A DNA stretch of 64,000 bases from Synechococcus sp. (lineage in GTDB: Bacteria; Cyanobacteriota; Cyanobacteriia; PCC-6307; Cyanobiaceae): the NCBI GenBank assembly GCA_047284725.1, contig JBJBEO010000001.1:1816203-1880202 (forward strand), written 5' to 3'. Positions 6,062 to 62,462 of the stretch are shown here, piece by piece. Under the pieces are notes generated by a model. That model had not been told where the DNA came from and ran no database searches. It saw only the letters and a program-made list of their open reading frames with translations. Each line of letters begins with the position of its first letter. Position 1 is the stretch's first letter. A program made the translations under genes and the position numbers.

Positions 6062-7096
6062 TTATACTACAGTCACAATGCCATCTGTAATCATAAAGGT
6101 ATCTGCAACTAAGCCTATGGTAGTACCTCCAATACCACCGATAAGCTCAAAACTATCAAGATTCATAGAACCTGGACTTGGATCACCAGCAGCTGTCAAA
6201 ACACCAGTGCCATCACCATTATCATCATAGACATACGTACCATCGGAAAGAAGAATCGTGTCAACACCCATGCCACCCTTGAAAACAATGGTGGATCCGA
6301 ATCCGCCACCGATCAGGGTGTCATTATCTTCACCCAAGTCGATTAGCCCAGCACCAGCAAATCCACCCTTTTCTGCATTAACTGTATCTTCTCCAGCACC
6401 GGTCGATAGTTCTGAACCAACGGAGACAGAAATTCCAGCATTAACCCCATCGCCTGCTACAGAGTCATTTCCGTCACCCGTATAAATGAAGCCAGAATTC
6501 AAAAGACCACCAAGTTGGATACCAATTCCTCCACTAAAATTACCCGGGTCAAGAGGATTGGGAACGCCTAGGGAGGTTCCCGTAATGGAATCATTACCAG
6601 ACCCATCGTCAGAATCAGTATAAATTGCGCTTCCAAACAAAACAGCAATACCAGCTTGGCCTCCGGATCCATTAATTGTGTCGTTATCGGGGCCAGTATC
6701 AGAGCCAGTATTGATCAAGGCACCACTCAAAAAGATGCCATAGCCGGTATTCTCACCCCCAGTTCCATTTAAGGTATCGTTACCCCCATTCGTAGAGATA
6801 GACGTGCCTTCACCTAAGGCAATCCCGGTTAAATTACCAGAACCGATGATGGTGTCACTTTTATCACCAGTTGTTAGGCTTCCAGTCGTGAGCTCAATAC
6901 CAACACCAGCTGGAACGGGACCCAGGAGAGTGCTGGAAAATTCCTCCGATTCTCCAATCAGGGTGACTTTCTGACTTGCTCTTTGGCCTACGGCAGTGTT
7001 AACTTCAGCATCAATCAGCCAACCACTGCTGGATTTGAGAGACTTTCTCTGCTTCGGAGTCAGCTCATCGTAAACAGATTGATTAAGGACAGCCAT
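6062..7096 (-). CDS. Gly/Asp-rich RTX-like (hemolysin-type Ca-binding repeat) protein
   Basis: Repeated GxGxD/GNDT(I/L)xG motifs (GGNDTLNG, GSGNDSITG, GDGNDSVAG, GAGEDTVNA, GEDNDTLIG, GMGVDTILL); no signal peptide; AT-rich. Confidence 0.8.
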   Translation of the reverse strand: MAVLNQSVYDELTPKQRKSLKSSSGWLIDAEVNTAVGQRASQKVTLIGESEEFSSTLLGPVPAGVGIELTTGSLTTGDKSDTIIGSGNLTGIALGEGTSISTNGGNDTLNGTGGENTGYGIFLSGALINTGSDTGPDNDTINGSGGQAGIAVLFGSAIYTDSDDGSGNDSITGTSLGVPNPLDPGNFSGGIGIQLGGLLNSGFIYTGDGNDSVAGDGVNAGISVSVGSELSTGAGEDTVNAEKGGFAGAGLIDLGEDNDTLIGGGFGSTIVFKGGMGVDTILLSDGTYVYDDNGDGTGVLTAAGDPSPGSMNLDSFELIGGIGGTTIGLVADTFMITDGIVTVV

Positions 7097-8143: not shown

Positions 8144-9646
8144 ATGGGGAGCACCACAGGCCGCCCCGAGGGGGTGAGGCCAGCGATCGCCGGTGGGGAG
8201 GAAGCGCTGCGCCACCTGATGCAAACCGACGATCCGGTGTGGCTGGAGCACACCGACCGGGATCTGGCGACGCTCCGCTCCGGCTTTGCCTGTGCCCTGC
8301 ACATGCATCAGCCCACCATCCCCGCGGGCCGCGACGGCGCGTTGATCTCCCATCTCCAGTTCATGCTGGAGCACCCCGATGAGGGCGACAACCACAACGC
8401 CGAACCGTTTGCGCAGTGCTACCGCCGCATGGCGGATCTGATCCCGCGCCTGATCCACGACGGCTGCAGTCCGCGGATCATGCTCGATTACTCCGGCACC
8501 CTGCTGTGGGGGGTCGAGCAGATGAGGCGCCACGACATCACCGGCGCCCTCCGGTTTCTGGCCTGTGATCCCACCATGCAACGGCATGTGGAGTGGCTCG
8601 GCAGTTTCTGGGGCCATGCCGTGGCCCCCTCCACGCCGATCCCCGATCTGATCCTGCAGATCCAGGCCTGGCAGCACCAGTTCGCGGCCCTGGCCGGCGA
8701 GGCAGCCCTGCAGCGGGTGCGCGGCTTCTCCCTGCCGGAGATGCATCTGCCCAACCATCCCGACACGCTCTACACCCTGATCCAGGCCCTGAAGCAGTGC
8801 GGCTACCGCTGGCTCCTGGTGCAGGAGCACAGCGTCGAAACCCTGCGGGGTGAACCGTTACCGCGCCCGCACACCCTGCTGCCCAACACCCTGATGGCCC
8901 GCAATGCCGATGGCGACACCATCAGCATGCCGGCACTGATCAAGACCCAAGGCTCCGACACCAAACTGGTGGGCCAGATGCAGCCCTGCTACGAAGCGCT
9001 CTCGCTCGACCGCCAACGCCTGGCCGGCACCACCGTGCCGGCTCTGGTGAGCCAGATCGCCGACGGTGAAAACGGCGGCGTGATGATGAATGAATTCCCC
9101 GCGGCGTTCGAGCAGGCCCATCGGCGGATCCAGGCCGATGGCTCAGCCACCGTGGCCATCAACGGCAGCGAATACCTTGAGCTGATCGCTGCGGCAGGCA
9201 TCGATGAAGCCGACCTGCCGAGGATTCAGGCCTCTGGCCAGCACCGGCTCTGGCAACAGCTGGGGGCCGACCGCGGAGCAGACGCCGTCCATGCCGCCAT
9301 CGAGGCGTTGCAGCAAAGCGATCCCGGCTTTGCCATGGAAGGTGCGTCCTGGACCAACAACCTCAGCTGGGTGAAGGGGTACGACAACGTTCTGCAGCCG
9401 ATGCAGCAGCTCAGCGCCCGCTTTCACCAACGCTTCGACGCGGAGCTGCTCGCCAACCCCCTGCGCAGCCGCGATGACGACTATCAGCAGGCTCTCCTCC
9501 ACCTGCTGCTGCTGGAAACCAGTTGCTTCCGCTACTGGGGGCAGGGCACCTGGACCGACTACGCCCGCACCATTCACCAACGCGGAGAGGCCCTGCTGGA
9601 GATGCCTCCACCCTTTGAGGCATGCGCCAGCGATCAAGCCGGTTGA
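8144..9646 (+). CDS. glycoside hydrolase family 57-like protein
   Basis: ALHMHQP N-terminal motif, DYSGTLL, GFSLPEM, DGENGGVMMNEF, ETSCFRYWG. Confidence 0.85.
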   Translation: MGSTTGRPEGVRPAIAGGEEALRHLMQTDDPVWLEHTDRDLATLRSGFACALHMHQPTIPAGRDGALISHLQFMLEHPDEGDNHNAEPFAQCYRRMADLIPRLIHDGCSPRIMLDYSGTLLWGVEQMRRHDITGALRFLACDPTMQRHVEWLGSFWGHAVAPSTPIPDLILQIQAWQHQFAALAGEAALQRVRGFSLPEMHLPNHPDTLYTLIQALKQCGYRWLLVQEHSVETLRGEPLPRPHTLLPNTLMARNADGDTISMPALIKTQGSDTKLVGQMQPCYEALSLDRQRLAGTTVPALVSQIADGENGGVMMNEFPAAFEQAHRRIQADGSATVAINGSEYLELIAAAGIDEADLPRIQASGQHRLWQQLGADRGADAVHAAIEALQQSDPGFAMEGASWTNNLSWVKGYDNVLQPMQQLSARFHQRFDAELLANPLRSRDDDYQQALLHLLLLETSCFRYWGQGTWTDYARTIHQRGEALLEMPPPFEACASDQAG

Positions 9647-9885
9647 AACCAGCTGCGCAGGCGCGTGATCAGCATCTGCAACAGCTCCACCAGCCCCAGA
9701 CGCGGGCGCGGCGGCCTGGGCCGAGCCAGCACGGCATGGTCAGGATGCTGAAGCGGCGCGGCGTACCCCTCAAAAGCGCGCGTCACCGACACCTCCCCCT
9801 GAAGTTCCTCCGCCAGGGTGCGGGCGTTGATGCGTGACCCACAGCCGGGGGAATGCCGGCCGGGCTGTGGTGATGGTCTCGTCAT
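9634..9885 (-). CDS. hypothetical protein
   Basis: 83-aa ORF preceded by a GGAGG SD-like sequence. Confidence 0.55.
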   Translation of the reverse strand: MTRPSPQPGRHSPGCGSRINARTLAEELQGEVSVTRAFEGYAAPLQHPDHAVLARPRPPRPRLGLVELLQMLITRLRSWFQPA

Positions 9886-11838: not shown

Positions 11839-12227
11839 TGCCCTGGAAGGGAGACGAGTGAAGCGGCACTGACGGCTGCAACCCGTGGTCTGACCCCAAC
11901 CCAGGCCGCGATCCTTCTGCCGTGATCTCAAGACATGGTGGTCAGTTCCCCTTACTGCTCTTAACTTGATCTTTACCTGCTGTTGTCCTGGATGGACGGA
12001 GCCCACAGCCGACTCGTCAAGCTTGAAGCCAAGGCCTATCGCTGCCTCTCGCGCCAGGAAGCCCAGCGCATCCTGCGTGAAGCCGACCAGCTCAGGGGCT
12101 CCCTCAGCGCGAGCACTGGCCACGCGAACGCAAACGACGTCGCCTGAGGCGCTTCACCAACAACGTTGACAAAGGTCTGACAAGGCTGCCGTCGTTGTCT
12201 ATTGCTGGGATCAGCACGACCAAGCCC

Positions 12228-12995
12228 ATGCGCCGCACCGTTTCCTCCCTCGCCGTTGCGGGTTTGCTACCCGTTGCCTTGGGAGTTCAGTCGCCCGCTC
12301 TGGCGCAGGTGGGTGGCGTGGCCCCCCGCCAGCCCGTCACGGTCGCCGTCAAAGAGATCACCAATTCTGCGTCAGGCGTGTGGTGGTGGAGCCCGTCGGT
12401 GTCGAAAAAACTCACCGACATGCTCGCCAATGAGCTGAAGTCGAGCGGCAATTTCACCCTAGTGGAGCGACAGAGGCTCAATCAGGTGCTGAGCGAGCAG
12501 GAACTGGCGGAGCTGGGAATCACCCGCCAGAGCACAGCCCCGAAGCGAGGCATGATGACCGGCGCCAAGTACTACGTACTGGGCAGCGTCAGTGACTACC
12601 AGGAGAACGTCGAAACCAAGAGCGGTGGCGGCGGCTTCAACATCATGGGCTTCGGTCAGCGCAAGACCTCGAATCAGAGCAAGGCCTACGTGGCCCTTGA
12701 TATCCGCGTGGTCGACACCACAACAGGAGAGATTGCCTATGCCCGCACCATCGAGGGCAAAGCCACATCAACGTCCACCTCCACCTCGTCCAGCGGCGGC
12801 CTCTACGGCCTTTCCTTCAGCGATTCCCAGTCTTCATCCAACAAAGTGCCAGCATCCAAGGCCGTACGTGCCGCGATGATCGAAGTGGGCGACTATCTCA
12901 ATTGCGTGCTCTATCTGCGCAACAGCTGCATCGCTGACTACGACCGCAAGGAACGCAACCGCCGGGAGGCCACCAGAGACGTTCTCGAATTCTGA
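12228..12995 (+). CDS. CsgG/HfaB family protein
   Basis: Signal peptide; LTDMLANEL..GNFTLVER..L..VLSEQEL, GAKYYVLGSVSDY, VALDIRVVDTTTGEI motifs. Confidence 0.88.
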   Translation: MRRTVSSLAVAGLLPVALGVQSPALAQVGGVAPRQPVTVAVKEITNSASGVWWWSPSVSKKLTDMLANELKSSGNFTLVERQRLNQVLSEQELAELGITRQSTAPKRGMMTGAKYYVLGSVSDYQENVETKSGGGGFNIMGFGQRKTSNQSKAYVALDIRVVDTTTGEIAYARTIEGKATSTSTSTSSSGGLYGLSFSDSQSSSNKVPASKAVRAAMIEVGDYLNCVLYLRNSCIADYDRKERNRREATRDVLEF

Positions 12996-17581: not shown

Positions 17582-19387
17582 ATGCCCAGATACGTTAATA
17601 ACATTTTTAAAGTGTTTTCTGGTAGCCATCGCCAGGAAAGCGTATCCAGGTCCAAGGCGATTGTATCCTTGTCTCCGATCATTCTAGTTATGTCAGCAGG
17701 GATGTTATCGGTAGATAGCCTACATAAACAATATGTTTTTACCTCCAAGGAGATTCAAGGGACCTACGACATTGAATACTTAATTCATCTAAGGACAGTG
17801 CTTAAAGAAACTCGTGGCCTTAGACAGTTTCCCAATGAATACTTATCTAAAAACATCAAGTTGCATTGGGATTTTGGCACACACTTTGCAGAAAAAGAGA
17901 CGCATGGAGAGCATCATCCACAGCATGAGCATGAGCATGAGCATGAGCATGAGCATGAGCAGAATACTCAAACTGAGAACGCAGAATCCGACAAAATTGC
18001 ATCGACCATTATCGAAAAAAATAGAGATGACATTACCTCGTCTCTCTCACATCGCAAATGGCTCGAAATCAAGAAGCGTTATGGATTTCACTTGGGTGAC
18101 ATCAAGATAGATCTCGTAAGGCCGCCTTCGTCTGGGATCCCTTTTGACTATAAAAGCGACTACGAACGTTACACTGAGCGTCTTGATGAATTAAATGAAT
18201 ACTTTGCTCTTGTTGCCGACAACTCAAATCTCATTCTAGATCCTGAGATTAGCACTTATTATTTGATGGACTTAACGGCCTCGACGTTGCCCATAATCAT
18301 TGACTTGATTGCAGAAAGTCGGGGCAGGCGCATAGCTCTTGAGACAGGAAGAGAAGAAAGGGATATCAGTAAAAACAAAAATGATACATCAGAGGAACTG
18401 GAAAAATTAGCCACATTAATCGACTTTAATCTAAGAAAACTAAATCGGACAATCAATATTCTAAGCTTCTCCAGTCCCTCCGCATACGAAAGCCTAGGGA
18501 TTGATCGCCTTGAGCTAGTTGACAAGATTGACCAACTAAAAAATGTTCTTACCGCCGAACCTATCGGCAACAAAGAAGCAACGATAAAAGACTGGAATAA
18601 AACCACTATGCTAATTGCATTTTTGCAAGAGATTCAAAACAAAGGCCTACAAATATTAAGGACAAAACTAGAGGAGAGACGTGATAAAATAGCTATGCAA
18701 ATTGCTATCATAACAAGCCTGTTGATATCAGGCTCTGTTCTGATCTACTATATCAATAATCGGCTTTTTGGAAGACTCTCAAGAGCTCTTGACGATATTA
18801 AAGAGTTAGCTAATACAGACTCGCTGACCAAATTATTATCCAGGAGAAGTCTGCCTTACTTATACAGGAGGGCTGTCAATGAATCCAGCAACTTTGGTGG
18901 CCTTGCGGTGTGCCTCCTTGACATTGATTTTTTTAAAGCCTTTAATGATACGTATGGGCATGCTCAAGGTGATGACGCGCTCGTTAAAGTTTCGGCGTTG
19001 TTAAAAGAATCACTCCTGAGAGATACTGATTACGCATTTCGCTATGGGGGCGAGGAATTCCTTCTCATTTTTGCCGCTTCTGAACTAAATAAAATGGACT
19101 ACTTTTTGCAGTCAATTCGCAGAGGTGTTGAAAATCTAAAAATTCCACATCATGCAAGCGATGTTGCTGATCATTTAACAATATCGATGGGAGCAGTCTT
19201 TATTCCTGAGTCCATCATGCCCATTGAATTAGAGACAGCTCTCTTGCAAGCAGATCGAGAGCTTTACAAAGTGAAAAAGAAATCCAGGAATGCTGTCTCC
19301 GTTGTCACGCTATCAACTCAAATGAAAGTTACTCTACGCGAAGAAATAAATTCAAAAAAAGATCGTCGGGTAAGCGACATAAATTAA
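17582..19387 (+). CDS. membrane-bound diguanylate cyclase (extracytoplasmic sensor + GGEEF)
   Basis: Two TMs flank a sensor with ADNSNLILDPEISTYYL; TDSLTKL, DIDFFKAFNDTYGHAQGD, RDTD I-site, RYGGEEF. Confidence 0.93.
   Translation: MPRYVNNIFKVFSGSHRQESVSRSKAIVSLSPIILVMSAGMLSVDSLHKQYVFTSKEIQGTYDIEYLIHLRTVLKETRGLRQFPNEYLSKNIKLHWDFGTHFAEKETHGEHHPQHEHEHEHEHEHEQNTQTENAESDKIASTIIEKNRDDITSSLSHRKWLEIKKRYGFHLGDIKIDLVRPPSSGIPFDYKSDYERYTERLDELNEYFALVADNSNLILDPEISTYYLMDLTASTLPIIIDLIAESRGRRIALETGREERDISKNKNDTSEELEKLATLIDFNLRKLNRTINILSFSSPSAYESLGIDRLELVDKIDQLKNVLTAEPIGNKEATIKDWNKTTMLIAFLQEIQNKGLQILRTKLEERRDKIAMQIAIITSLLISGSVLIYYINNRLFGRLSRALDDIKELANTDSLTKLLSRRSLPYLYRRAVNESSNFGGLAVCLLDIDFFKAFNDTYGHAQGDDALVKVSALLKESLLRDTDYAFRYGGEEFLLIFAASELNKMDYFLQSIRRGVENLKIPHHASDVADHLTISMGAVFIPESIMPIELETALLQADRELYKVKKKSRNAVSVVTLSTQMKVTLREEINSKKDRRVSDIN
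17924..17959 (+). repeat. (CATGAG)6 hexamer microsatellite encoding (HE)6
   Basis: Six perfect CATGAG units in frame. Confidence 0.95.
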
Positions 19388-19542: not shown

Positions 19543-21210
19543 CTATTTGATTAACACTTTTGTCATTATTTCCTTCTTGCTTAAAGGCGCTGATTTATGG
19601 AATCCCTGAAAATACTTGCAGCCATGAGAGTCTAAATAATCAATCTGATCATCACTTTCCACGCACTCTGCGCAGACCTCTAGGCCTAATTCGGTAGCCA
19701 TGGAGATCGTGCCATTGGTGATGGCAGTATTAGAAATATTTGCGGGAATATCTTTAATAAAACTCCCGTCGATTTTGATAGTTTTTATGGGTAATGCTTG
19801 CATAATTGACAATGAGGAAAAGCCAGTACCGAAATCATCAATGCAGAGAGCCACCCCTAACTTAGAAAGATCTTCAAACAACTCTTTCGCAGCCAGGAGA
19901 TCCTTTAGGAAAGAAGTCTCGGTCAGCTCAATTTTAAGCAGGCTAGGTGAGACATTATAGTGCTGACAAGCCGTTTTGATTTGCTGAGTATATGAAAAAT
20001 GTGTATTCATATAATATTCAATTTGTACAGCTGAAAAATTAATAGAGATGGGAACAGGGTTGATACCATCATTTTTCCAATCGTGAAGTGTCTTCAATAC
20101 TTCATCAAGAGACCAGTCCCAAATGCGATGAATTAAGTCAGTAGTTTCAGCAAGGGGGATAAAAGTAGAAGGGGAGATGTGTTTGTCATCATGTGTCCAG
20201 CGACTCAACGCTTCAATCCATGCGATGGCACCTTTATGATCAAAAATTGGTTGATAAGCCAGACTAAGCTCATTTTTTTTTATTGCGACAGCGAGATCGG
20301 CCATCATCTCGATCTCTTGATCAGTCTTGGTCTTCCGCAAGACCTTTGGAAAAGACTGGTGAATAAAGCTATCTTTATTTCGTTGCATTTTTTTCGAAGC
20401 CAACATCATAGCGTCCGCTTTTCTATAAACATCGAGCAACCGATCTCCGCTCTTTGACATGCAAACGCCGATAGAGGCATTGAGTCCGGATGCTATCAGC
20501 TCATTACTTAGCCGATAGGAAATGCCTGGAGCAATATCAATGTCACTATTAGATTCAAAAATCATGCAAAATTCATCACCACCAGTTCGAAAAATACTGT
20601 CTTGTTCACTGCGAATCAACCTTTGAAGGGTCTCACCAACTCTTTTGAGAACACGATCGCCAGCTTCATGACCAAAATCATCATTGATGATTTTAAAATC
20701 ATTGAGGTCGACAACAGCTACACAATAGAAGCATGACCGATAAAGAGAATTCTGATCGTTTTCTATCTTTGCATCCCATTCTCTTCTGTTCAAACATCCA
20801 GTAAGGCTATCTAAGTTATGATTTTTTTCTTTTGTAATGTCCCGAAAGATCCATGCCCGCGAACGTAATTCTGACGGGCCATCTGTTGCGAGACTAGATC
20901 GTGCAAACAAACGACCATCATTAAAATGGATTTCATCCTTTAATGAAAGATCTGTCCCATGGAGGGATTCAACTTTTTCGATAAACTCTTGCGGATCCTT
21001 AACTTGAGACAACACGCTATTTAAGAGCTCATGATCGTCACCTCGCTCAACGATGCTAAGAGGAATATTCCACATTTTAATAAATTTCTTATTGCAATAA
21101 GCTACTTTTCGAGTTTGATCATTAACGATCAGGATTCCATCCACCAGCTGATCCATAACGAGATCAAGAAGCTCGGCCAACCTTTCCTTCGTGTGGGATA
21201 TAAAATGCAT
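19543..21210 (-). CDS. PAS-GGDEF-EAL protein (c-di-GMP cyclase/phosphodiesterase)
   Basis: PAS (DGILIVN..YCNKKFIKMWNIP..WIFRDIT), DLNDFKIINDDFGHEAGD, RTGGDEF, YQPI..EALSRW, IELTE, DDFGTGFSSL, KIDGSF, QGF. Confidence 0.95.
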   Translation of the reverse strand: MHFISHTKERLAELLDLVMDQLVDGILIVNDQTRKVAYCNKKFIKMWNIPLSIVERGDDHELLNSVLSQVKDPQEFIEKVESLHGTDLSLKDEIHFNDGRLFARSSLATDGPSELRSRAWIFRDITKEKNHNLDSLTGCLNRREWDAKIENDQNSLYRSCFYCVAVVDLNDFKIINDDFGHEAGDRVLKRVGETLQRLIRSEQDSIFRTGGDEFCMIFESNSDIDIAPGISYRLSNELIASGLNASIGVCMSKSGDRLLDVYRKADAMMLASKKMQRNKDSFIHQSFPKVLRKTKTDQEIEMMADLAVAIKKNELSLAYQPIFDHKGAIAWIEALSRWTHDDKHISPSTFIPLAETTDLIHRIWDWSLDEVLKTLHDWKNDGINPVPISINFSAVQIEYYMNTHFSYTQQIKTACQHYNVSPSLLKIELTETSFLKDLLAAKELFEDLSKLGVALCIDDFGTGFSSLSIMQALPIKTIKIDGSFIKDIPANISNTAITNGTISMATELGLEVCAECVESDDQIDYLDSHGCKYFQGFHKSAPLSKKEIMTKVLIK

Positions 21211-21756
21211 CGCTTTCGGAGGAGTTGCAGCTCTACACACCCAACTGAATATTAGCCACCAAAAGAGAGTTAAATCCTTCAGGAAACACTCAGAATGATT
21301 AATTTACGTATCAACGACTACCAAAAAAGCAAGGGTGAAGAGCCTTGCATCGTTGGTGTGGATGACTCAAGCGACCAGTGGAGTGAATCCTGGTTCCTGC
21401 CTTGATACGTCCCAGCGACCTTCTGGTGAGGTTGAAGCCATAAGGCGCAAACACTGAAGGGCCTATGCGGATTGAAACGGGAGAAGCTCAGTATTGGCAG
21501 ACACGACATCCATTCAGATGACTGATGTTCAGCAAAAGTACGATGATGCACGAATTTAAAACGAACGTAGCCATCTGGATACCGAAAACAAGACGAATCA
21601 ACGTATCAATCGAGAGCGCATTAGAGAGGGACATTGACAATAAAACAAATTCAACCCTGGTTGTTGCGATGAGGATTCAATCCATCCAAGTAATCTGGAT
21701 GTAGGAGTCGCAAGCTTTCACCATGGATCAAGAGGCAATGACAGATAGCACGAGTA

Positions 21757-23019: not shown

Positions 23020-24282
23020 GTGGAAACATCACAAGATCACTTAATCAGAACGATTAGACGGAGATACAAAACAGCTCTTCTTCTCATTGGACTATCGACA
23101 TTTGCAGCATGCTTATGCTTACGATTTTCTCTAGCCAGGTCTGAAAGTACTGCGTTGATTGTGAATATCTCAGGGAGACAACGAATGCTTAGTCAGCGGA
23201 TTGGCCTTGACGCATTAAAGGTCAACAATCTTTTGCAAGACTCAGACATACGCTTAGCTCGTGAAGCATCAAAGAGTTTACTTAAACACTCTGAAGAGAT
23301 GCAGGCTGCCAACAAGAAACTCTCGTCAGGTAATTTATCCAGTTCTCGTTTTGTTGTTCTTTCAAGCAAAATACGCGCTCTCTACTTTGGGCCAAAAAAC
23401 TTATCGCAGCGAGTGAATGACTACACAGAACTTGGAAGCCGTCTTTCAAAAATCTCTGATAGCGATCAAGCCACTCCCCTGGCCATGGAGATTATTGCAC
23501 TTGCTCCAGGTCTATTAAGTGATTTAAACGATGCAGTCGCCGTATACCAAACAGAAGGTGAACAAAATATTGAATTTTCTGAATACGTTGCCTGGGCAGC
23601 CATTTCGATTATTATCATTCTCCTGTTTATTGAAGCTAGATTTATTTTTAGGCCGATACTACGCATTGTAGAAGAAAGCAGAATGATGGAGGAGAAGCGA
23701 ATTGATGAGTTATCAGAACAGGTTGAGCTGCGAACGATCAAGCTGGAAAAAGCGAATCTAAGACTGCGAGAGATGGCGACTTGTGATCCGTTGACGGGGT
23801 TAAAAAATAGAACAACACTCTTCGATGAGATTGCGTTGCTGATTGGAATGTATCGAAAAAATCAAGTGCACTTTGCTCTTGCCTACCTCGACATTGATTT
23901 TTTCAAGAGCATCAATGATTGCCATGGCCACGCCTTCGGCGACTTTATCTTGAAAGAATTTTCTAGAATTATTCAAAGCAATCTAAGAGAATCTGACGAC
24001 TTTTATCGTGTTGGAGGAGAAGAGTTTGTGATTCTATTCAAGCGTGGCCCCCTGAGTGGAGTCGTCTCAAAGCTTGAGTATTTACAGCAATACTTAAGGG
24101 ATCACCTATTCTCAAAAGATACAACCAGCGCGAAAATAACTTTCAGTTGTGGAGTATTCCACACCAGCCAGTTTGAAAAGTTTGATATTGATCAGGCTTT
24201 GAATCTGGCCGACCAAGCCTTGTATGTGTCAAAAACATCTGGTCGTGACAAGATCACTATTGCAGAGAACAATAGAGGCTGA
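23020..24282 (+). CDS. membrane-bound diguanylate cyclase with a PilJ/NarX-like sensor
   Basis: TM, IVNISGRQRMLSQRI (P/N-box), TM, coiled coil, DPLTGLKNR, DIDFFKSINDCHGH, RESD I-site, RVGGEEF. Confidence 0.93.
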   Translation: METSQDHLIRTIRRRYKTALLLIGLSTFAACLCLRFSLARSESTALIVNISGRQRMLSQRIGLDALKVNNLLQDSDIRLAREASKSLLKHSEEMQAANKKLSSGNLSSSRFVVLSSKIRALYFGPKNLSQRVNDYTELGSRLSKISDSDQATPLAMEIIALAPGLLSDLNDAVAVYQTEGEQNIEFSEYVAWAAISIIIILLFIEARFIFRPILRIVEESRMMEEKRIDELSEQVELRTIKLEKANLRLREMATCDPLTGLKNRTTLFDEIALLIGMYRKNQVHFALAYLDIDFFKSINDCHGHAFGDFILKEFSRIIQSNLRESDDFYRVGGEEFVILFKRGPLSGVVSKLEYLQQYLRDHLFSKDTTSAKITFSCGVFHTSQFEKFDIDQALNLADQALYVSKTSGRDKITIAENNRG

Positions 24283-54791: not shown

Positions 54792-54853
54792 GGCCACGGC
54801 CTCACCCCGTCCAACAATCGTTGCTTTGCAATGGTCGAGGGGATCATCGCCTT

Positions 54854-54926
54854 GCGCCGTTAGTTCAGTTGGTAGAACGCAGGTCTCCAAAACCTGATGT
54901 CGGGGGTTCGAGTCCTCCACGGCGCG
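54854..54926 (+). tRNA. trnW: tRNA-Trp (CCA)
   Basis: Acceptor GCGCCGT/ACGGCGC, anticodon arm CAGGT-CTCCAAA-ACCTG, GGTTCGAGTCC T-arm. Confidence 0.98.
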
Positions 54927-54962
54927 TCCGATGACCCCTCATGCACTTTCCTGAGTTCGAGC

Positions 54963-55151
54963 ATGGAGTTAGATCTTCAACCTGGTGATGTTGTGAAGGT
55001 GCTCGAATCAGCCGCCCTCGGCTGGGTTCGGGCCCGTGTGATTCGTGTCAAATCAGGCGGCAGGGTCGTTGTTCAAAGCGATCAAGGCCGTGAGTTCACA
55101 GCCCGCGGCAATCAGGTACGCCTGATTGAGCCAGCAGGGTTCCGTCCCTGA
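54963..55151 (+). CDS. Prochlorococcus/marine Synechococcus hyper-conserved protein (PSHCP/HCP)
   Basis: MELDLQPGDVVKVLESAALGWVRARVIRVKSGGRVVVQSDQGREFTARGNQVRLIEPAGFRP, in the known position after rplS-tRNA-Trp. Confidence 0.95.
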   Translation: MELDLQPGDVVKVLESAALGWVRARVIRVKSGGRVVVQSDQGREFTARGNQVRLIEPAGFRP

Positions 55152-55173
55152 CAGTTCTCATTGATGGACTGTG

Positions 55174-55198
55174 ACCTCGCCCAAGGGCGGGGTTTTTT
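55174..55198 (+). terminator. intrinsic terminator after HCP
   Basis: ACCTCGCCC-AA-GGGCGGGGT-TTTTT. Confidence 0.8.
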
Positions 55199-55560
55199 CA
55201 TGCCTGCATCTGCCCATGCGCTTCGGCCGTGGCCTGGCCCATGTTTTGCGAGCACAGGTGGAGTCCAGCTGGTTGACCTGATGCAACCACAACAGATCGA
55301 ACATGCCGCCGAAAACCGGCAGCTCTCAGGAAATTCACAGACATGCCTCAGCAGCCATTCATTGGCGGCACCCTTTTCTGAGCGATGGTGTGGTGGAGAG
55401 AAAGGCAGCCCTGAGAGCAGGTTCCACGCTGCCGACCAGAGGCCAATTATTAAGAAAGTGTCAAGCCCTTGCGCAAGGCTTTGTAGCGTGCCATCATGAG
55501 TTCAAGGGAGGGAACACTCCCCCCTCATGCACAGCTCCTTTCTCTCACCCGAGCTTTCAA

Positions 55561-56019
55561 ATGAAAAACTTCAAAGCACTCGTTGCCGGTCTTGTTGCGC
55601 TGGGCGCCTTTGCTCCTGCAGCTTTCGCCGACACTTCTGATAGCACCAAGTTCCAGTATACTCGTTCATTCGCTTGTGACATTGCAGCCGACGATTCGAC
55701 GGTCGCGATGACCAAGACTGGCGACCAACTTGATGGTAGCACTGGTTTGACTGTCACTGGTGACACAAGTCTCGCCAAAGTGACTGTCCAAGTTGGAGAC
55801 ACTTCAGCCAGCGAAAATGTCACCCTCCAAGCGGGCTCGGCAATTGTGACACTTGACGGCGTTTCTTCGGAAGCAGTCACTGGATCTGGCGGCAGCAAGT
55901 CTGACAATTTCGTGCACACCTCCGTCGCGAGCGCTATGACCCTTAGCGCTCAAGTCACGGGTGCTACTGCTCTTGGCTTGTATGAAATCCCAGTCGAGGT
56001 GACCTGCGCCGAAGCTTGA
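55561..56019 (+). CDS. secreted beta-rich, fimbrial major subunit-like protein (152 aa)
   Basis: Sec signal (..APAAFA|D), Thr/Ser/Gly/Val-rich, Cys near the mature N-terminus and C-terminal GLYEIPVEVTC. Confidence 0.75.
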   Translation: MKNFKALVAGLVALGAFAPAAFADTSDSTKFQYTRSFACDIAADDSTVAMTKTGDQLDGSTGLTVTGDTSLAKVTVQVGDTSASENVTLQAGSAIVTLDGVSSEAVTGSGGSKSDNFVHTSVASAMTLSAQVTGATALGLYEIPVEVTCAEA

Positions 56020-56068
56020 TTGATTTTCATCAGCTAACCAAAGGGAACACAGTCTCTTTGCAACTATT

Positions 56069-56099
56069 AAAAGAGAGGGGCTTTACACCCCTCTTTTTT
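56069..56099 (+). terminator. intrinsic terminator between the subunit-like and chaperone-like genes
   Basis: AAAAGAGAGGGG-CTTTACA-CCCCTCTTTTTT. Confidence 0.85.
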
Positions 56100-56130
56100 A
56101 TGCTACTTTTCAAATATCTAGGCTCTTAAC

Positions 56131-56511
56131 ATGATCCTTGAAGGTGCTCTTCTTGCTGCAGCATTGCAAATCAAAGGCCCCGACGTTTTAACGCGCAATA
56201 TAAAAAATGAATCCCAAGTGAGAGGCTATGCCGAAGCCGACCAAGGTAAACCTGGTGTTTACACCATCACCATTCACACTGCAGATGGAGAAGGAGTTGG
56301 AGAAGAGATCATTCCTATCACCATCCTCCCGAAAAAGCTAATACTTAAGGAAAAGAGACCGAGAACATTTTCTATGAAATTTTCACTCTCCGAAAACTAC
56401 GAAGGTCCGGTTTACTTTTGCATTAAACGAAAAAATGATCCCGGCGAAAAAGCCGGAGGACTCAGAATTAGAACTCGCACATGCTATAAGAGATCGATAC
56501 TTGCCAAATAG
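56131..56511 (+). CDS. small basic beta-rich protein, possibly a single Ig-like fimbrial chaperone-like domain
   Basis: ILPKKLILKEKRPRTFSM resembles the PapD_N 'P..f.L.pg....v.v' segment; C-terminal YFC..RTC Cys pair. Confidence 0.65.
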   Translation: MILEGALLAAALQIKGPDVLTRNIKNESQVRGYAEADQGKPGVYTITIHTADGEGVGEEIIPITILPKKLILKEKRPRTFSMKFSLSENYEGPVYFCIKRKNDPGEKAGGLRIRTRTCYKRSILAK

Positions 56512-56516
56512 ACCGC

Positions 56517-57047
56517 ATGACTCACTGCAACATCAAAATGTTTCGCCCCAAGGCAATTAATTTCAGATTATTTTTCCTGCTATTTGCTTATTGCTTTTTT
56601 CCTGCAAATGCCTTCTCTCAAATAACAACTTTTGAGCCAGTCACTGGCACGTCCAACGAACTTCTTCTCGATGATTTGGGGCTCTCCTCCATACAACAAC
56701 CAGAAGGAAGAACATTTACTCTTGAACTGCCTGATGGATTAGTTTGCGAATCAACTGATGGAACTCCACCTTCACTGAATCTCTATGCAGGCACATCAGA
56801 TCGAACCAATTCATTTCAACGCTCCAGCGATTATTACACGGGAGGCATTGGTGCAGGTGCTGTAGTTTCAATACCTTTGAACACAAAAGAAAAAAGAAAC
56901 TGTGATGCAGCTTACAAAAGCTATTTAAATTCGAAGCAACTTGAAACAGCCCAATTGCTCTACGAGCTCGGGGTCATGAATGACGACGAACTTCAAGAAT
57001 TCGCAAACCGCATCAAAGATTTGCTTATTAATTCAAGCCAAAATTAA
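56517..57047 (+). CDS. secreted hypothetical protein (beta hairpin + C-terminal helices)
   Basis: Signal peptide (..PANAFS); GLVC..SLNLYAG..GIGAGAVVSIPL..RNC..Y; start may be 56538. Confidence 0.75.
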   Translation: MTHCNIKMFRPKAINFRLFFLLFAYCFFPANAFSQITTFEPVTGTSNELLLDDLGLSSIQQPEGRTFTLELPDGLVCESTDGTPPSLNLYAGTSDRTNSFQRSSDYYTGGIGAGAVVSIPLNTKEKRNCDAAYKSYLNSKQLETAQLLYELGVMNDDELQEFANRIKDLLINSSQN

Positions 57048-57056
57048 AATATCTGG

Positions 57057-57302
57057 CTACCGATCGTTAACTTTACAACCAATAAGGTCTTCGCCTCCCA
57101 AATCAGAAACGAAATAGCGACAAGTTTCCACAATAGTTTCCTCAACCTTAAAACGAAATATTACCCGAACGCTTTTTTTTTCGATACCTGCTACTCGATG
57201 CCTCTCACTATTTATGCCATTTTGTATGAGTACAAAAGAAAAAATCAGCACAAGAACCACAAGAGTGCAATAATATACTGATTTTTTTTGCATCATTCTC
57301 AA
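57057..57302 (-). CDS. small membrane-anchored protein with a Cys pair
   Basis: N-terminal TM; ETC..GC; AT-rich. Confidence 0.5.
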   Translation of the reverse strand: MRMMQKKSVYYCTLVVLVLIFSFVLIQNGINSERHRVAGIEKKSVRVIFRFKVEETIVETCRYFVSDLGGEDLIGCKVNDR

Positions 57303-57315
57303 GCCTTAAACTTTG

Positions 57316-57603
57316 CTATTGCAACTTTTTATGCAAGGTCTCTGTTGAAACTCTCCCGTTAGTCAAATCAATACAAGAGACAGAAGTCACTGTATCTAAA
57401 GGTTGATTGGCTAAGAAATTACTTGCAGCATTTAGGCAAATGCTATGTCTTTGAAATTGAAAAGCGACGGCATCTATTGTACTAGAGCCTTGAGTTCTCA
57501 CCTGAATAACCATTTGCGACCGCGCCATCACTGGCGCAGAGGCAAAGGCTAAAAGCATCAATTGTGAGAGTGGAGCCCAAGCGAAAAGCCGCAACCGTTT
57601 CAT
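57316..57603 (-). CDS. small secreted protein with a Cys pair
   Basis: Signal peptide (..SAPVMA); FQRHSICLNAA..VSCID. Confidence 0.6.
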   Translation of the reverse strand: MKRLRLFAWAPLSQLMLLAFASAPVMARSQMVIQVRTQGSSTIDAVAFQFQRHSICLNAASNFLANQPLDTVTSVSCIDLTNGRVSTETLHKKLQ

Positions 57604-57772
57604 AAAATCGATCTAATTAGAATTGAACGCGAACTGGTCAGGATGCCAGCGAAAAACCAATTTCGCCCATAACGACAAACAATTGAGAAATTGAGAGGCT
57701 TCAGAGCAAACAGGGAAATCCCTTTTCCTTCTTAGCTTGAGAACAAACAATTCACAAGGCTGCATGAAGTTT

Positions 57773-57952
57773 CTATGCAAAGTTTTGCTCTCCAAACGAC
57801 TCAATCTCCATCATGATTGAACTCATGGCAGGCGTAGCAACTTGAATGCTGCGGCCAAACCCTTGACGCAACCTTTGATCCAAGTCAAGCAAGCTGACAG
57901 CCTCTTGCGACTTTAGAGATCCATACACCTCAAACTGCTTGATCCCCGCCAT
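57773..57952 (-). pseudogene. possible degenerate MntA-type minimal nucleotidyltransferase
   Basis: GIKQFEVYGSL..EA and SLLDL..L..FGRSIQVATP resemble MNT segments, but the DxD catalytic segment is absent. Confidence 0.3.
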
Positions 57953-59346
57953 GCACGGATCAAGCCCGTGATTGACCGACAAAGCATGGAGCGGCAGCGC
58001 AGCCCGGCGACCTGACCCACGCCATCACCATCAGGGCCTGTTCCTTGATGGGCCTGAATCGGGCAGCAAGCAATAAAAAAGGCGCCCATGCAGGCGCCCC
58101 TTTCTCTCAAGACCAACATCGCGCACATCGATGCCCGGTCAATGGGTGGCCACTGAGAGCTATCTGTGAATTACCTGAGAGTCCTGGTGGACGGTTGCAG
58201 AGGCGGCCCCTGCTATCGCCGTCCCGCCCCCGCCATGCACGGATCAAGCCCGTGATTGACCGACAAAGCATGGAGCGGCAGCGCAGCCCGGCGACCTGAC
58301 CCACGCCATCACCATCAGGGCCTGTTCCTTGATGGGCCTGAATCGGGCAGCAAGCAATAAAAAAGGCGCCCATGCAGGCGCCCCTTTCTCTCAAGACCAA
58401 CATCGCGCACATCGATGCCCGGTCAATGGGTGGCCACTGAGAGCTATCTGTGAATTACCTGAGAGTCCTGGTGGACGGTTGCAGAGGCGGCCCCTGCTAT
58501 CGCCGTCCCGCCCCCGCCATGCACGGATCAAGCCCGTGATTGACCGACAAAGCATGGAGCGGCAGCGCAGCCCGGCGACCTGACCCACGCCATCACCATC
58601 AGGGCCTGTTCCTTGATGGGCCTGAATCGGGCAGCAAGCAATAAAAAAGGCGCCCATGCAGGCGCCCCTTTCTCTCAAGACCAACATCGCGCACATCGAT
58701 GCCCGGTCAATGGGTGGCCACTGAGAGCTATCTGTGAATTACCTGAGAGTCCTGGTGGACGGTTGCAGAGGCGGCCCCTGCTATCGCCGTCCCGCCCCCG
58801 CCATGCACGGATCAAGCCCGTGATTGACCGACAAAGCATGGAGCGGCAGCGCAGCCCGGCGACCTGACCCACGCCATCACCATCAGGGCCTGTTCCTTGA
58901 TGGGCCTGAATCGGGCAGCAAGCAATAAAAAAGGCGCCCATGCAGGCGCCCCTTTCTCTCAAGACCAACATCGCGCACATCGATGCCCGGTCAATGGGTG
59001 GCCACTGAGAGCTATCTGTGAATTACCTGAGAGTCCTGGTGGACGGTTGCAGAGGCGACCCCTGCTATCGCCGTCCCGCCCCCGCCATGCACGGATCAAG
59101 CCCGTGATTGACCGACAAAGCATGGAGCGGCAGCGCAGCCCGGCGACCTGACCCACGCCATCACCATCAGGGCCTGTTCCTTGATGGGCCTGAATCGGGC
59201 AGCAAGCAATAAAAAAGGCGCCCATGCAGGCGCCCCTTTCTCTCAAGACCAACATCGCGCACATCGATGCCCGGTCAATGGGTGGCCACTGAGAGCTATC
59301 TGTGAATTACCTGAGAGTCCTGGTGGACGGTTGCAGAGGCGGCCCC
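57944..59346. repeat. tandem array with a 284-bp period, about 4.94 copies (five 267-bp cores + four 17-bp linkers)
   Basis: Cores start at 57944, 58228, 58512, 58796, 59080; linker TGCTATCGCCGTCCCGC; only difference noticed is G>A at 59058. Confidence 0.97.
58075..58103 (-). terminator. terminator inside each repeat unit (recurs every 284 bp)
   Basis: Minus strand AAAGGGGCGCC-TGCATG-GGCGCC-TTTTTT. Confidence 0.75.
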
Positions 59347-59716
59347 GAAACAAGCCTTCGCGAAAAGCCTCGCAAGACGGTCATGTTTCCGGGTTATTGA
59401 CAGACACCCTGTCTTCGGCGGAATAGCGCCACGTTGACGCTTGCTGATCGAAGTCCGATCCCAGGCGATTCTGCCGGCCTGCGTCCGTCTCCGGTTCCGC
59501 TTCATGGGCACAAAGCCTTGGACTGGCCTCGCCTCGAGTCGACCAGACCAGCCAGAACACGGGTGAACACTTCGCGTCACTGACAACCGTTTGAGGCATC
59601 CACCAGCTGATTCAGGCAGTTGGTTGACGGAGGGCAGGGCTGAGGTCGATACTTTCTGAGTCGCGCAAGCGATGCAGGGCAATCGCAGGTGAAGTCGCAC
59701 CTGACGATGCATGCCT

Positions 59717-59790
59717 GGGACCGTAGTTCAATTGGTTAGAGCACCGCCCTGTCACGGCGGAAGTTGCGGGTTCGAGCCCCGTCGGTCCCG
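59717..59790 (+). tRNA. trnD: tRNA-Asp (GTC)
   Basis: Acceptor GGGACCG/CGGTCCC, anticodon arm CCGCC-CTGTCAC-GGCGG, GGTTCGAGCCC T-arm. Confidence 0.98.
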
Positions 59791-59810
59791 TTCCAAACCT
59801 CCACACCACC

Positions 59811-61244
59811 GTGTCGGTTCGCGTTCGTCTGGCTCCAAGCCCTACAGGAACCCTCCATATTGGAACGGCTCGAACAGCGGTTTTCAACTGGTTGTTTGCG
59901 CGCAACAGCGGCGGATCCTTCCTCCTTCGCATCGAAGATACCGACCGCGAACGATCCAAGGACGCCTTTACCGCCAACATCCTCGAAGGCTTGCAGTGGC
60001 TTGGCATCAACTGGGACGAAGAGCCCGTCATCCAAAGCAAGCGGATTGCCGATCACCGTGCGGCGATCCAGACGCTGCTTGATCGGGGCTTGGCCTACCG
60101 CTGCTACGCCAACGAACGTGAGCTTGAGGCCATGCGCAAGGCCCAGAAAGCCGCCAATCAGGCCCCCCGCTACGACAACCGCCACCGTGATCTAACCCCT
60201 GAGCAGGAAGCGGCTTTCCAACAGGAAGGCAGAGATGCAGTGATCCGTTTCCGCATCGATGACAACGCCGAAATCCGCTGGACCGACCTCGTCAGAGGCC
60301 CCATGAGCTGGCGGGGTGCGGATCTCGGTGGCGACATGGTGGTGGCCCGCAGGGCTCCAGCCGATCAGATCGGAGATCCCCTCTACAACCTTGTGGTGGT
60401 GGTGGATGACGCGGCGATGGCGATCACCCATGTGATTCGAGGCGAAGACCACATCGCCAACACCGCCAAGCAACTGCTGCTCTACGAAGCACTAGGCCTC
60501 TCCAAACCGACTTTCGCCCACACACCGCTGATCCTGAACTCCGAAGGGCGCAAATTGTCCAAGCGTGATGGAGTCACCTCCATCAGCGACTTCCGCTCGA
60601 TGGGCTACACCGCTGATGCGATCGCCAACTACATGACGTTGTTGGGCTGGTCTGTACCGGAAGGAATGGAGGAGCGCTTCACCCTGGCTCAAGCGGCTGA
60701 GGTCTTCAGTTTCGATCGTGTCAATAAAGCGGGTGCCCGCTTCGACTGGGACAAACTCAACTGGCTCAATGCCCAGGTTCTCCACGAGCAGACTCCCGAG
60801 CAGCTCTTGGCTGCACTCGAACCGCTCTGGTCTGAACAGGGCTGGACGCTCCCCAACGACCGCAACTGGTCGCTTGCGCTGTGTGAACTGCTTGGCCCCT
60901 CCCTGACCCTGATCAAAGACGGAATCGATCAAGCGGCTCCGTTCTTTGCAGAACCGCCCCTCGAAGACGATGCCGTCAAACAACTGGAGCAGGAAGGGGC
61001 CCGCAACGCCCTGAAGGCGCTGCTCTCAAACCTCGACGCCAGCCCTTGGGATGGCATCAACCGTGACGAGGGCCAAGAGCTGCTGGCCAACGCAGTCAAA
61101 ACCGCTGGTGTGAAGAAAGGGGTGTTGATGAAGTCCCTGAGGGCCGCCTTGCTCGGACGACTGCAAGGTCCTGACCTGATGACCACCTGGGGGCTACTGG
61201 CCAGACTCGGGGCTGACCGTCAACGCATTCACCGCAGCGTCTGA
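59811..61244 (+). CDS. gltX: glutamate--tRNA ligase
   Basis: [13 protein letters not shown] (HIGH-like), [21 protein letters not shown] (KMSKS-like). Confidence 0.98.
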
Positions 61245-62462
61245 GCCTCCCTCCTCCATGCCTGCTGGCTCCGGCTCCACCAAACCGAGCATCTGGGCCA
61301 AGGGTTGAGCCGTCAATCCCTGCAGGCCAACGGTCATCAGGATCGTGAGAAAGACCAGACCCTGAAGACGACCAGCACCCAACACCCCTGCCTGCTCCAG
61401 GCGAATGGCGAAAAGGGAGGCCACTGCCGCCGTGACGATGCCGCGGGGAGCGAGCCAGCCCATGAACAAGCGCTGCCGCCAGTCCAGGGGAAGACCAATC
61501 GTGGCGAGTCCCACAGCTGCCGGGCGCACCACCAGCATCAAGAGAAGCACACAGCTCACACCTCCCCAACCGAGCGGACTGAGCTCTGCCCAGGACACAT
61601 CAGCGGCAAGCAAAGGGAACAACATCGTGATCGCCAAACGCGCCAACTCACGGATCAGCTCATCCAGCTGAGCCGCCTCCGTGAAGGGCCTGCGGCCAAC
61701 AACGAAACCAGCGGCCACGGAGGCCGGCAGCCCAGATTCCGGCAACAACCATTCACAGGTGCCGAACATCAGAAACAGTGCCCCAAGCGTGATCTGGAGC
61801 CGGAGCCCGACTGCAGGGTCGGGGCGTAAACGGCGCAGCGCTTCCGATAACAGCCAGCCGACGCCGAGACCAATCACCACCCCACCACCGAGCCGAGCCA
61901 TCAAACCGATGGCCAGCTCTCGCCAGCCATGCAGATTGCCCAGCAGCAATTCCAGCAACAGCAGGGCCAACACAGCTCCCACAGGCTCCAACACCAACCC
62001 TTCAGCTTCCAGCACATCTCCGAGGGGAGAAGCGAGGCGTATCTGCTGAATCAACGGTGTGACCACCGTCGGGCCTGTCGCCAGCACGATGGCGCTGTAC
62101 ACCGCTGCCACCGACCAGCTGAGCCCCGCCAACCAGTGCGCGGCACACAAGCCGGCAACAAGAGACAGCAGCAAACGGATCACGGAAATCCGGAGCACGG
62201 TTGCTTTGATCGTGTCTCCGGGAAGACGCAGGTTGAGGCCCCCGTCAAACAAGACAAGGCTGACGAGTAAACCCACCACCGTCGCCAGCCCCTGGCCGAG
62301 ATCCAGAGGCTCCACCAGCCCAAGGCCAGAACGCCCGATCAGCAAGCCCGACAGCAGCAGCAGCACCACGCCCGGTAACCCCGACAACGCTGCCAGCAGG
62401 CGTGCGGAGGCCCCGGCAAACACCGTGACCCCCCACAACAGCCCCAGCCGTTCAGGCGTCAT
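61194..62462 (-). CDS. CPA1/NhaP-type cation:proton antiporter
   Basis: [41 protein letters not shown]. Confidence 0.92.

Follow-up and report, generated by a model that had tools for sequence, protein, structure and literature searches.

A tandem array of five near-identical copies of a 284-bp non-coding unit was found in a Synechococcus sp. genome (GenBank assembly GCA_047284725.1, contig JBJBEO010000001.1), within the 64,000-nt stretch analysed here (positions 1,816,203 to 1,880,202 of the forward strand), hereafter called the window; all coordinates below are window positions. The array occupies 57944–59346, and each unit holds an intrinsic terminator read on the minus strand and, directly upstream of it, an 83-nt element with a diverged, inverted paralogue ahead of a small neighbouring gene (gene A). 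We tentatively favour, at somewhat less than an even chance, the reading that a short module resembling a leader or a small RNA (sRNA), composed of the 83-nt element and the terminator, has recently been amplified in tandem together with passenger DNA.

Architecture of the array

Tandem Repeats Finder returned a single array at 57944–59346 (period 284, 4.9 copies, 99% matches, 0% indels, score 2799), and a repeat search gave five copies at 284-bp spacing, starting at 57944, 58228, 58512, 58796 and 59080, with no solitary copy elsewhere in the window. The 1,403 nt of the array (GC content 0.616, no strand assigned) are made up of five 267-bp cores and four 17-bp linkers (TGCTATCGCCGTCCCGC; 58211–58227, 58495–58511, 58779–58795 and 59063–59079), and the copy number is non-integer, at 4.94. 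Copy 5 has no linker, which is missing at both ends of the array and, with three mismatches allowed, is confined in the window to the four internal junctions (0.35 matches expected by chance). In a copy-by-copy comparison copies 1–3 and 5 were identical, and copy 4 differed solely at 59058 (G>A). The array is real, and these analyses bear out three statements made in a first-pass annotation of the same DNA, namely that there are five near-identical copies, that the base at 59058 is the only difference between them and that the linker is absent from both array ends. One difference in 1,403 nt points to a recent origin or to ongoing homogenization.

An assembly artefact, with a true copy number of one or two, appears very improbable. 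Short-read assemblers would usually collapse rather than expand identical 284-bp repeats, one copy carries a private base difference, and both outer junctions are clean, the right one being common to two independent contigs; the contigs that carry relatives of the unit are themselves short (743 and 3,891 bp) and say nothing on copy number, which is the point in favour of an artefact.

In the minus-strand minimum free energy (MFE) structure the first bases of the linker, with the CCCC before them, form a 7-bp hairpin with the core end (GCAGGGG/CCUCUGC), and an imperfect palindrome (GGACGGTTGCAGAGGCGG/CCCCTGCTATCGCCGTCC) formed by core end and linker is present at 58190–58227 and at the three other internal junctions. 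Since core end and linker form a palindrome, the junction of the first duplication is not random filler. A separate observation concerns the left boundary, where GCTTGATCC (57937–57945, the last 7 nt of the left flank and the first 2 of the array) is a perfect 9-bp inverted repeat of GGATCAAGC (57957–57965, inside hairpin i described below). This inverted repeat is found at the left boundary only, and may be due to chance (about 0.1 pairs expected, by estimate) or may be a trace of boundary formation.

The array is non-coding. Its longest open reading frames (ORFs), of 84 amino acids (aa) on the plus strand and 101 aa on the minus strand, both cross the terminator hairpin and have no Pfam or NCBIfam match, and Pfam gave zero matches for the stop-free segments of at least 30 aa in all six frames of the unit. 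The 84-aa plus-strand reading had 0 matches in protein databases, and by-eye comparison with the two relatives P0001 and P0002 described below showed that stop codons of the window ORFs are read there as W and R. The earlier view that no ORF in the array looks coding is thus upheld, both by the six-frame searches and by the passage of the ORFs through the terminator hairpin.

A terminator and an 83-nt element with an inverted paralogue

Read on the minus strand, the hairpin at 58075–58103 of copy 1 is an intrinsic terminator, AAAGGGGCGCC-UGCA-UGGGCGCCUUUUUU, with a 12-bp GC-rich stem (−17.2 kcal/mol) followed by U6, so that the arrangement by which Rho-independent terminators are recognized, a GC-rich stem-loop directly followed by a U run, is present on this strand; read on the plus strand, the same hairpin has a poor tail, CCUUUCUCUC only. 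Further minus-strand copies lie at 58359–58387, 58643–58671, 58927–58955 and 59211–59239, one per unit, and the GGCGCC stem with its U6 tail on the minus strand, already noted in the first-pass annotation, was recovered in all five.

Immediately ahead of the terminator, in the minus-strand sense, comes the 83-nt element (58099–58181, read from 58181 to 58099 in copy 1; 58383–58465, 58667–58749, 58951–59033 and 59235–59317 in the other units, all on the minus strand), whose 5' end is the 19-mer CTCTCAGGTAATTCACAGA and whose 3' end is GAGAGAAAGG. When short words of the unit were sought in the remainder of the window, the first trace of a related copy was an inverted 18/19 match at 55323–55341. 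This match extends to a diverged paralogue of the whole element at 55323–55405 on the plus strand (58/83 identical, ungapped), which lies 156–238 nt ahead of 55561, where gene A probably starts. The local alignment score of this pair was 47, as compared with 19.8 ± 2.3 in 300 shuffles (maximum 31). The 5' edge is sharp, with 1/12 positions identical just upstream of the pair, and the best-kept parts are the two ends, namely the first 19 nt, CTCTCAGG[A/T]AATTCACAGA (18/19), and the last 10 nt, GAGAGAAAGG (10/10), while the middle is about 56% identical. Differences between the two copies fall over the three codon positions as 7/8/10, and aa identity is 12–13/27 in all six frames; given this lack of codon periodicity and the equal six-frame identity, the homology is therefore non-coding. 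Past the element, the gene A copy has a GC-rich hairpin that lacks a U run, and the likely gene A start comes about 156 nt on.

When up to three mismatches were allowed, the 19-mer occurred at six sites in the window, the five units and 55323, with 0.03 expected. The search was extended to syntenic loci obtained in a GltX scan of 185,579 species genomes, which gave at least 80 loci in Synechococcus, Cyanobium and Vulcanococcus (the best 84% identical among the matches listed). The 19-mer was missing from the 80 syntenic loci in an exact-match search, and a profile built on both 83-nt copies found nothing further in the window or in these loci. The rest of the unit and both flanks showed no homology above shuffles to the rest of the island.

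Predicted folding

Fold significance was assessed as the MFE of one unit compared with 200 dinucleotide shuffles. On the plus strand the whole unit gave −103.3 kcal/mol, compared with −101.3 ± 5.2 kcal/mol for the shuffles (z −0.38; 72/200 shuffles folding at least as well), and on the minus strand −120.6 compared with −116.4 ± 5.2 kcal/mol (z −0.80; 42/200). Folding of the whole unit is thus no more than chance for DNA of 62% GC. This does not sustain the first-pass description of a highly structured unit, almost all of which can fold, as the whole-unit MFE lies inside the shuffle range on both strands; the four local hairpins that it listed (i–iv, in copy 1) are nevertheless present. Hairpin i (57946–57994, plus strand) has z −2.02 on the plus and −0.87 on the minus strand, which is chance-level once post hoc selection is considered. 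Hairpin ii (CCAUCAGGG/CCUUGAUGG; 58028–58052, plus strand), which on the minus strand lies downstream of the terminator, reaches −13.4 kcal/mol (z −3.37) on the plus and −9.3 kcal/mol (z −1.88) on the minus strand. Hairpin iii is the terminator (z −2.48 plus, −3.24 minus), and stem iv beside it, previously drawn as a three-way junction, has z −1.16 plus and −2.35 minus. Only the terminator, hairpin ii and the terminator-adjacent stem thus attain z of about −2.4 to −3.4, values to be read with their post hoc choice in mind, since all four hairpins were selected after the sequence had been viewed, and their strand preferences disagree.

The 107-nt stretch from the 19-mer motif to the U run, which combines the element and the terminator, has an MFE of −43.2 kcal/mol (z −2.57), equalled in 4/200 shuffles, and a 61-nt version is predicted to fold as a 5' hairpin, a single-stranded linker and the terminator, the usual layout of an sRNA. 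A minus-strand RNA of about 60–110 nt ending at the terminator, much shorter than the unit, is still plausible.

At gathering score no Rfam covariance model matched the array, tRNAs alone being matched in the whole window, and at E ≤ 10 over 57700–59800 the hits were the tRNAs and a weak STnc40 match to the terminator (19.3 bits, as compared with a gathering score of 45). The cmscan comparison with Rfam proposed in the first-pass annotation therefore gave no family, with this terminator look-alike alone in the array. A riboswitch, a ribozyme or a long structured non-coding RNA (ncRNA) of any Rfam family was accordingly rejected, there being no model match and no whole-unit fold above shuffles. 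A viroid-like or rolling-circle multimer was set aside as well, as no ribozyme family was found at E ≤ 10 across the array, which holds all circular permutations of the unit, and the fold is within the shuffle range.

Relatives of the unit

Two relatives of the unit were found in protein collections, as ORFs called on metagenome contigs and each seen once: P0001 (169 aa, from the 743-bp contig) and P0002 (112 aa, from the 3,891-bp contig). Both start like the window minus-strand ORF at 59599, in the right flank of the array (59347–59616, no strand assigned), and then cross the same junction between flank and unit colinearly. P0001 continues without gaps for 160 codons, passing the terminator and stopping about 20 nt before the unit ends on the left. 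Codon differences from the window, counted by eye, number 12/84 in the flank and 8/75 in the unit for P0001, and 6/84 in the flank and 5/24 in the unit for P0002, after which P0002 diverges. At the aa level both relatives leave the inner 17 nt of the 19-mer intact, and P0002 alters the base on each side, again by eye. From the shared junction, unit and right flank are judged to be an old contiguous piece common to at least three close strains.

An exhaustive protein search with P0001 returned P0002 and three unrelated repetitive or low-complexity proteins (P0003–P0005), which were set aside as chance matches. P0003 and P0004 are long translations of other tandem DNA repeats from unrelated sources, spurious ORFs of this kind being common in protein collections. 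Searches at the DNA level, which the first-pass annotation had also recommended, were run against phages, plasmids and the syntenic loci and gave no match: one unit had no hit by blastn (distant mode) among 50,697 phage records and 72,556 plasmid records, and a dimer of the unit gave nothing in the 80 gltX loci (best E 0.17 with blastn and 1.6 with nhmmer). When the 101-aa minus-strand reading was compared with the 185,579 species genomes, 598 pattern stretches were matched and 0 confirmed, in a search that reaches close relatives only (about 90% identity or more, by estimate). The island as a whole likewise gave nothing meaningful against the 80 gltX loci with tblastx and blastn.

Evidence for and against an expressed module

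The case for a functional module rests on the terminator, on the 83-nt element with its well-kept ends and on the fold of the stretch that joins them. Several observations weigh against it. The first concern the promoter. A consensus promoter scan found no promoter-like site inside the array, and a looser scan (−10 hexamer with at least 4/6 matches, including A2 and T6) found none inside the unit on either strand, with sites present in the flanks. The 19-mer holds a −35-like TTCACA, and the best −10 candidates at 17-nt spacing are ACCCAT in the unit (2/6) and ATTCAT in the gene A copy (3/6). Judged on these hexamers, the candidate promoter is the weakest step of the RNA reading. The motif TANNNT is also absent from both strands of the unit, which is weak evidence; only 3.3% of shuffles were without it, but its absence is normal for the genome, 77.7% of 260 window tiles of similar GC also being without it, and the argument was dropped. 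Compared by eye with the site consensuses for NtcA, CRP, Pho-box, Fur, LexA and RpaB, the 19-mer accommodates only a CRP-like half site (TCACA), and no assignment was made.

Further points on the same side come from comparison of related sequences. In P0001, the only relative to reach across the "three-way junction" stem, each of the four substitutions inferred disrupts predicted pairing when traced by eye. The paralogue pair shows no compensatory changes, and the gene A copy has predicted helix P2 disrupted. In P0001 and P0002 conservation of the unit does not exceed that of the flank; these relatives are close (about 6–12 of 84 flank codons differ), and little can therefore be read from them about selection. 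Lastly, nothing shows that five copies are advantageous, and the amplification may be neutral and transient.

Several of these points also count in favour of a passive, functionless amplification, in which intergenic DNA with a relic terminator has been expanded by unequal crossing-over and the array, unexpressed and unbound, will collapse again. We regard this as possible but less likely than the module reading. In its favour, the near-identity of the copies marks the array as young, no promoter was found in the unit, the whole-unit fold is inside the shuffle range, the unit is conserved no better than its flank, and such arrays are not a regular feature of this group, no tandem repeat of period ≥60 being present in 1.27 Mb of the 80 related loci. 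Set against this, the terminator is canonical and intact, and the ends of the paralogue pair are well kept while the middle has drifted, a pattern that suggests constraint.

The first-pass annotation had proposed instead a tandemly amplified ncRNA gene, or two convergent RNAs that meet at a common terminator; as weighed here, each 284-bp unit would be the gene of a long, highly structured RNA, or of such an RNA pair, and its amplification would serve dosage. The terminator hairpin of each unit does stand between an A run and a U run and could stop transcription on both strands, local hairpins exist, and tandem sRNA arrays are known in cyanobacteria, namely NsiR1 (PMC4030482) and an array of Trichodesmium (PMC6596454). 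The whole-unit z values are however unremarkable on either strand, no Rfam family was matched, the plus-strand tail CCUUUCUCUC is poor, and the strand preferences of the hairpins conflict. A promoter for each unit, or a convergent pair for each unit, was not supported either, with no −10-like hexamer and no TANNNT (itself weak evidence) inside the unit. We consider this model improbable, and return below to the shorter minus-strand module as the preferred reading.

Genomic context of the array

The array lies at the right edge of an island of about 4.4 kb (55235–59610) that is specific to this strain in comparison with the syntenic loci examined and that also holds four ORFs: gene A (55561–56019, plus strand), the first ORF of the island, gene B (56131–56511, plus), gene C (56517–57047, plus) and gene D (57316–57603, minus). 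Three of the four, gene A among them, carry signal peptides, which agrees with the earlier description of the array as placed next to a secreted-protein module, since small signal-peptide genes do adjoin it. Genes A–D matched nothing at useful E-values in Pfam, NCBIfam, PADLOC or PHROGs. The Atlas lead for gene A consisted of cyanobacterial hypothetical proteins, with SCPU-domain proteins at rank 8, and gene A would encode a secreted protein, possibly SCPU- or pilin-like. The core of the island has a low GC content (0.36–0.43 across 56000–57900), and the left flank of the array (57604–57943, no strand assigned; GC 0.435) is a foreign-looking part of it, not host-like; the GC contents of the array (0.616) and of the right flank (0.585) are host-like. 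The right flank, joined to the unit at the same junction in P0001 and P0002, is absent from the 80 syntenic loci.

Eighteen of the 80 syntenic loci were examined (the closest, and several complete genomes), and 17 of these span both sides of the island. At all 17, homology ends at 55141–55234 and resumes at 59611–59716, with 52–1,073 bp in between, where the window has about 4.4 kb. A common stretch of about 1 kb occupies the island site in L003, L004, L012 and L040, the other 13 two-sided loci having only 52–406 bp; in L004, the only locus in which ORFs were read, a gene for a 293-aa LysR-type regulator (8794–9675 of that locus, minus strand) stands at this place. To the left of the island are rplS, tRNA-Trp (54853–54929) and a small conserved SH3-like ORF (54897–55151), and a terminator-like hairpin, CGCCC-AAG-GGCG followed by the U run GGGTTTTTTC, comes after this ORF at 55177–55200 and has an equivalent in the same position in L007. 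To the right, synteny resumes at a conserved promoter-like site (TTGACG-18-GATACT; 59624–59653, plus strand), followed by tRNA-Asp (59716–59791, plus) and gltX (59811–61244, plus). Because content varies between the SH3-like ORF and tRNA-Asp, the site is a hotspot of variation.

With its inverted 83-nt pair, the island could also be viewed as a mobile element, the 83-nt elements being imperfect terminal inverted repeats of a non-autonomous cassette that carries genes A–D, and the array being its multiplied right end. The pair is inverted with sharp, best-conserved 19-nt edges facing outward, it brackets low-GC cargo, and none of the syntenic loci examined has any of the region. The bases beside the two outer edges differ, however, so that there is no target-site duplication; a scan of 48 window ORFs found no integrase, transposase, reverse transcriptase or Cas protein; and the window and the 80 loci hold no further copy of the element, whose two copies are only 70% identical over 83 nt. 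In addition, about 390 nt of island-specific DNA lie outside the inverted repeats, and the last 29 nt of the unit lie beyond the presumed end. On balance we think a mobile-element end unlikely, more so than passive amplification. Two further kinds of element were considered and rejected. For a tRNA-targeting, tycheposon-like island, no partial copy of tRNA-Trp was seen in the island among the matches listed (longest 11 nt) and there is no integrase among the 48 ORFs scanned; the island sits upstream of tRNA-Asp and not at its 3' end. For an integron cassette array, the RYYYAAC/GTTRRRY core sites are absent from both strands of the unit.

Some features elsewhere in the window may be recorded. 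The segment 17582–24279 has a GC content at third codon positions (GC3) of 0.38–0.50, as compared with about 0.7 in host genes, and looks like another acquired island; three proteins of cyclic di-GMP signalling are encoded there, with GGDEF at 17582–19384 (plus strand), GGDEF and EAL at 19546–21240 (minus) and PilJ and GGDEF at 23020–24279 (plus). A gene for a CsgG-family lipoprotein is found at 12195–12992 (Pfam E 8e-47), and a 344-aa ORF at 6065–7096 (minus strand) has a very low GC3 (0.35) and no Pfam match. Next to the array region, the convergent gltX (plus) and Na+/H+ exchanger gene (minus, 61194–62462) overlap at their 3' ends by about 50 nt (61194–61244).

Proposed origin and significance

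The reading that we favour may be set out as follows. In a Synechococcus-like picocyanobacterium, a 284-bp piece of non-coding DNA of host-like GC, just inside the right-hand limit of a small acquired island, would have undergone recent tandem amplification. The functional-looking part would be about 110 bp per unit on the minus strand, the 83-nt element (58181 to 58099 in copy 1) followed by the terminator (58103 to 58075), and this module would derive from the control or leader region of gene A, as a copy cut short by the terminator. Its output would be a minus-strand RNA of about 60–110 nt, or else a decoy site for whatever binds the 19-mer, and the remaining 170 bp or so of each unit, including hairpins i and ii, would be passenger DNA. 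The array would have arisen from one duplication with the 17-bp, palindrome-forming junction, and would then have grown by unequal homologous recombination between copies. Transcription of the module, any regulatory link to gene A and this route of amplification are all inferred.

A more specific version of this reading seems to us rather unlikely. Here the unit would be a small gene with an unconventional, activator-dependent promoter around the 19-mer and would make a minus-strand RNA of about 60 nt, the 5' part of which copies the gene A leader; the five copies would serve as a decoy tunable by dosage, binding a regulator as DNA or a leader-binding factor as RNA, and would set the expression of the island surface proteins. 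If this were so, a unicellular marine cyanobacterium would have a tandem sRNA array like that of NsiR1, its copy number serving as a fast-evolving means of control.

Large-unit tandem repeats are rare in such streamlined genomes, and tandem duplications are usually unstable. The five copies are therefore either a snapshot of a very recent change or kept by selection for dosage. Were the module expressed, marine Synechococcus would have an sRNA array comparable to NsiR1 and linked to acquired genes for secreted proteins, and the 19-mer would offer a handle on the regulator; if it is not expressed, the array would be a clean natural example of a variable tRNA-adjacent site gaining and reshuffling DNA.

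Comparison with known systems

In the open-access literature searched, no tandem array of this kind was found described in marine Synechococcus. The first-pass annotation had stated that the array matches no CRISPR, ToxI or repetitive extragenic palindromic (REP) layout, and this holds, no Rfam family being matched either. In ToxI and CRISPR systems the repeats measure tens of bases, arise by processing of a single precursor and lie beside a toxN or cas gene. The present array resembles them in being a set of tandem non-coding repeats beside island- or defence-type DNA, but differs in its 284-bp unit, in having no unique spacers and in the terminator of each unit, which would block a long precursor. 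Families of the cas or toxN type were not found in Pfam scans of the window ORFs, and the four neighbouring ORFs match no PADLOC model.

As regards miniature inverted-repeat transposable elements (MITEs) and transposon ends, the likeness lies in the two inverted copies of the 83-nt element, with sharp conserved outer edges of 19 nt and foreign-looking cargo between them, whereas the lack of a target-site duplication, of a transposase among the ORFs scanned and of dispersed copies in the window or the 80 loci, together with an identity of only 70%, sets the island apart. Amplification by unequal recombination, as in variable number tandem repeats (VNTRs), offers a closer parallel, with head-to-tail, near-identical, non-integer copies in a variable, strain-specific region. 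Unlike a plain VNTR, the array has a 17-bp junction that is absent from both ends and pairs with the core end, so that the first duplication was not a simple join, and its unit holds an element with a conserved paralogue.

The nearest precedents are tandem sRNA arrays of other cyanobacteria. NsiR1, a 60-nt sRNA, is described as present in 12 copies in Anabaena PCC 7120, each with a HetR-dependent promoter, near hetF (PMC4030482), and as present in all heterocystous genomes (PMC4030482; PMC6596454). Like NsiR1, the array studied here consists of tandem direct repeats in a cyanobacterial intergenic region, with a short module per repeat that ends in an intrinsic terminator, and the predicted RNA would be of similar size, about 60 nt if it starts about 30 nt past the 19-mer. 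Unlike NsiR1, it has no recognizable promoter and no Rfam match, its neighbours are tRNA-Asp, gltX and the island ORFs, and the closest genomes among the matches listed are those of unicellular Synechococcus; the unit is known in two other strains only, its copies are almost identical, and about 170 of its 284 bp have no assigned role. Membership of the NsiR1 family was rejected, with no shared sequence, structural homology or context and no demonstrated promoter. The second precedent, in Trichodesmium erythraeum, is an array of more than 6 kb with seven repeats of 736–973 bp that gives rise to abundant sRNAs of about 250 nt, with mapped transcription starts, very high expression and a function stated to be unknown, as described in a review (PMC6596454). 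Both are large-unit, non-coding tandem repeats with near-identical copies in a marine cyanobacterium; the repeats of the Trichodesmium array are longer and highly expressed, whereas the 284-bp units described here are known from sequence. Taken together, these likenesses suggest that the array is a further example of a tandemly amplified non-coding module, and possibly an sRNA array.

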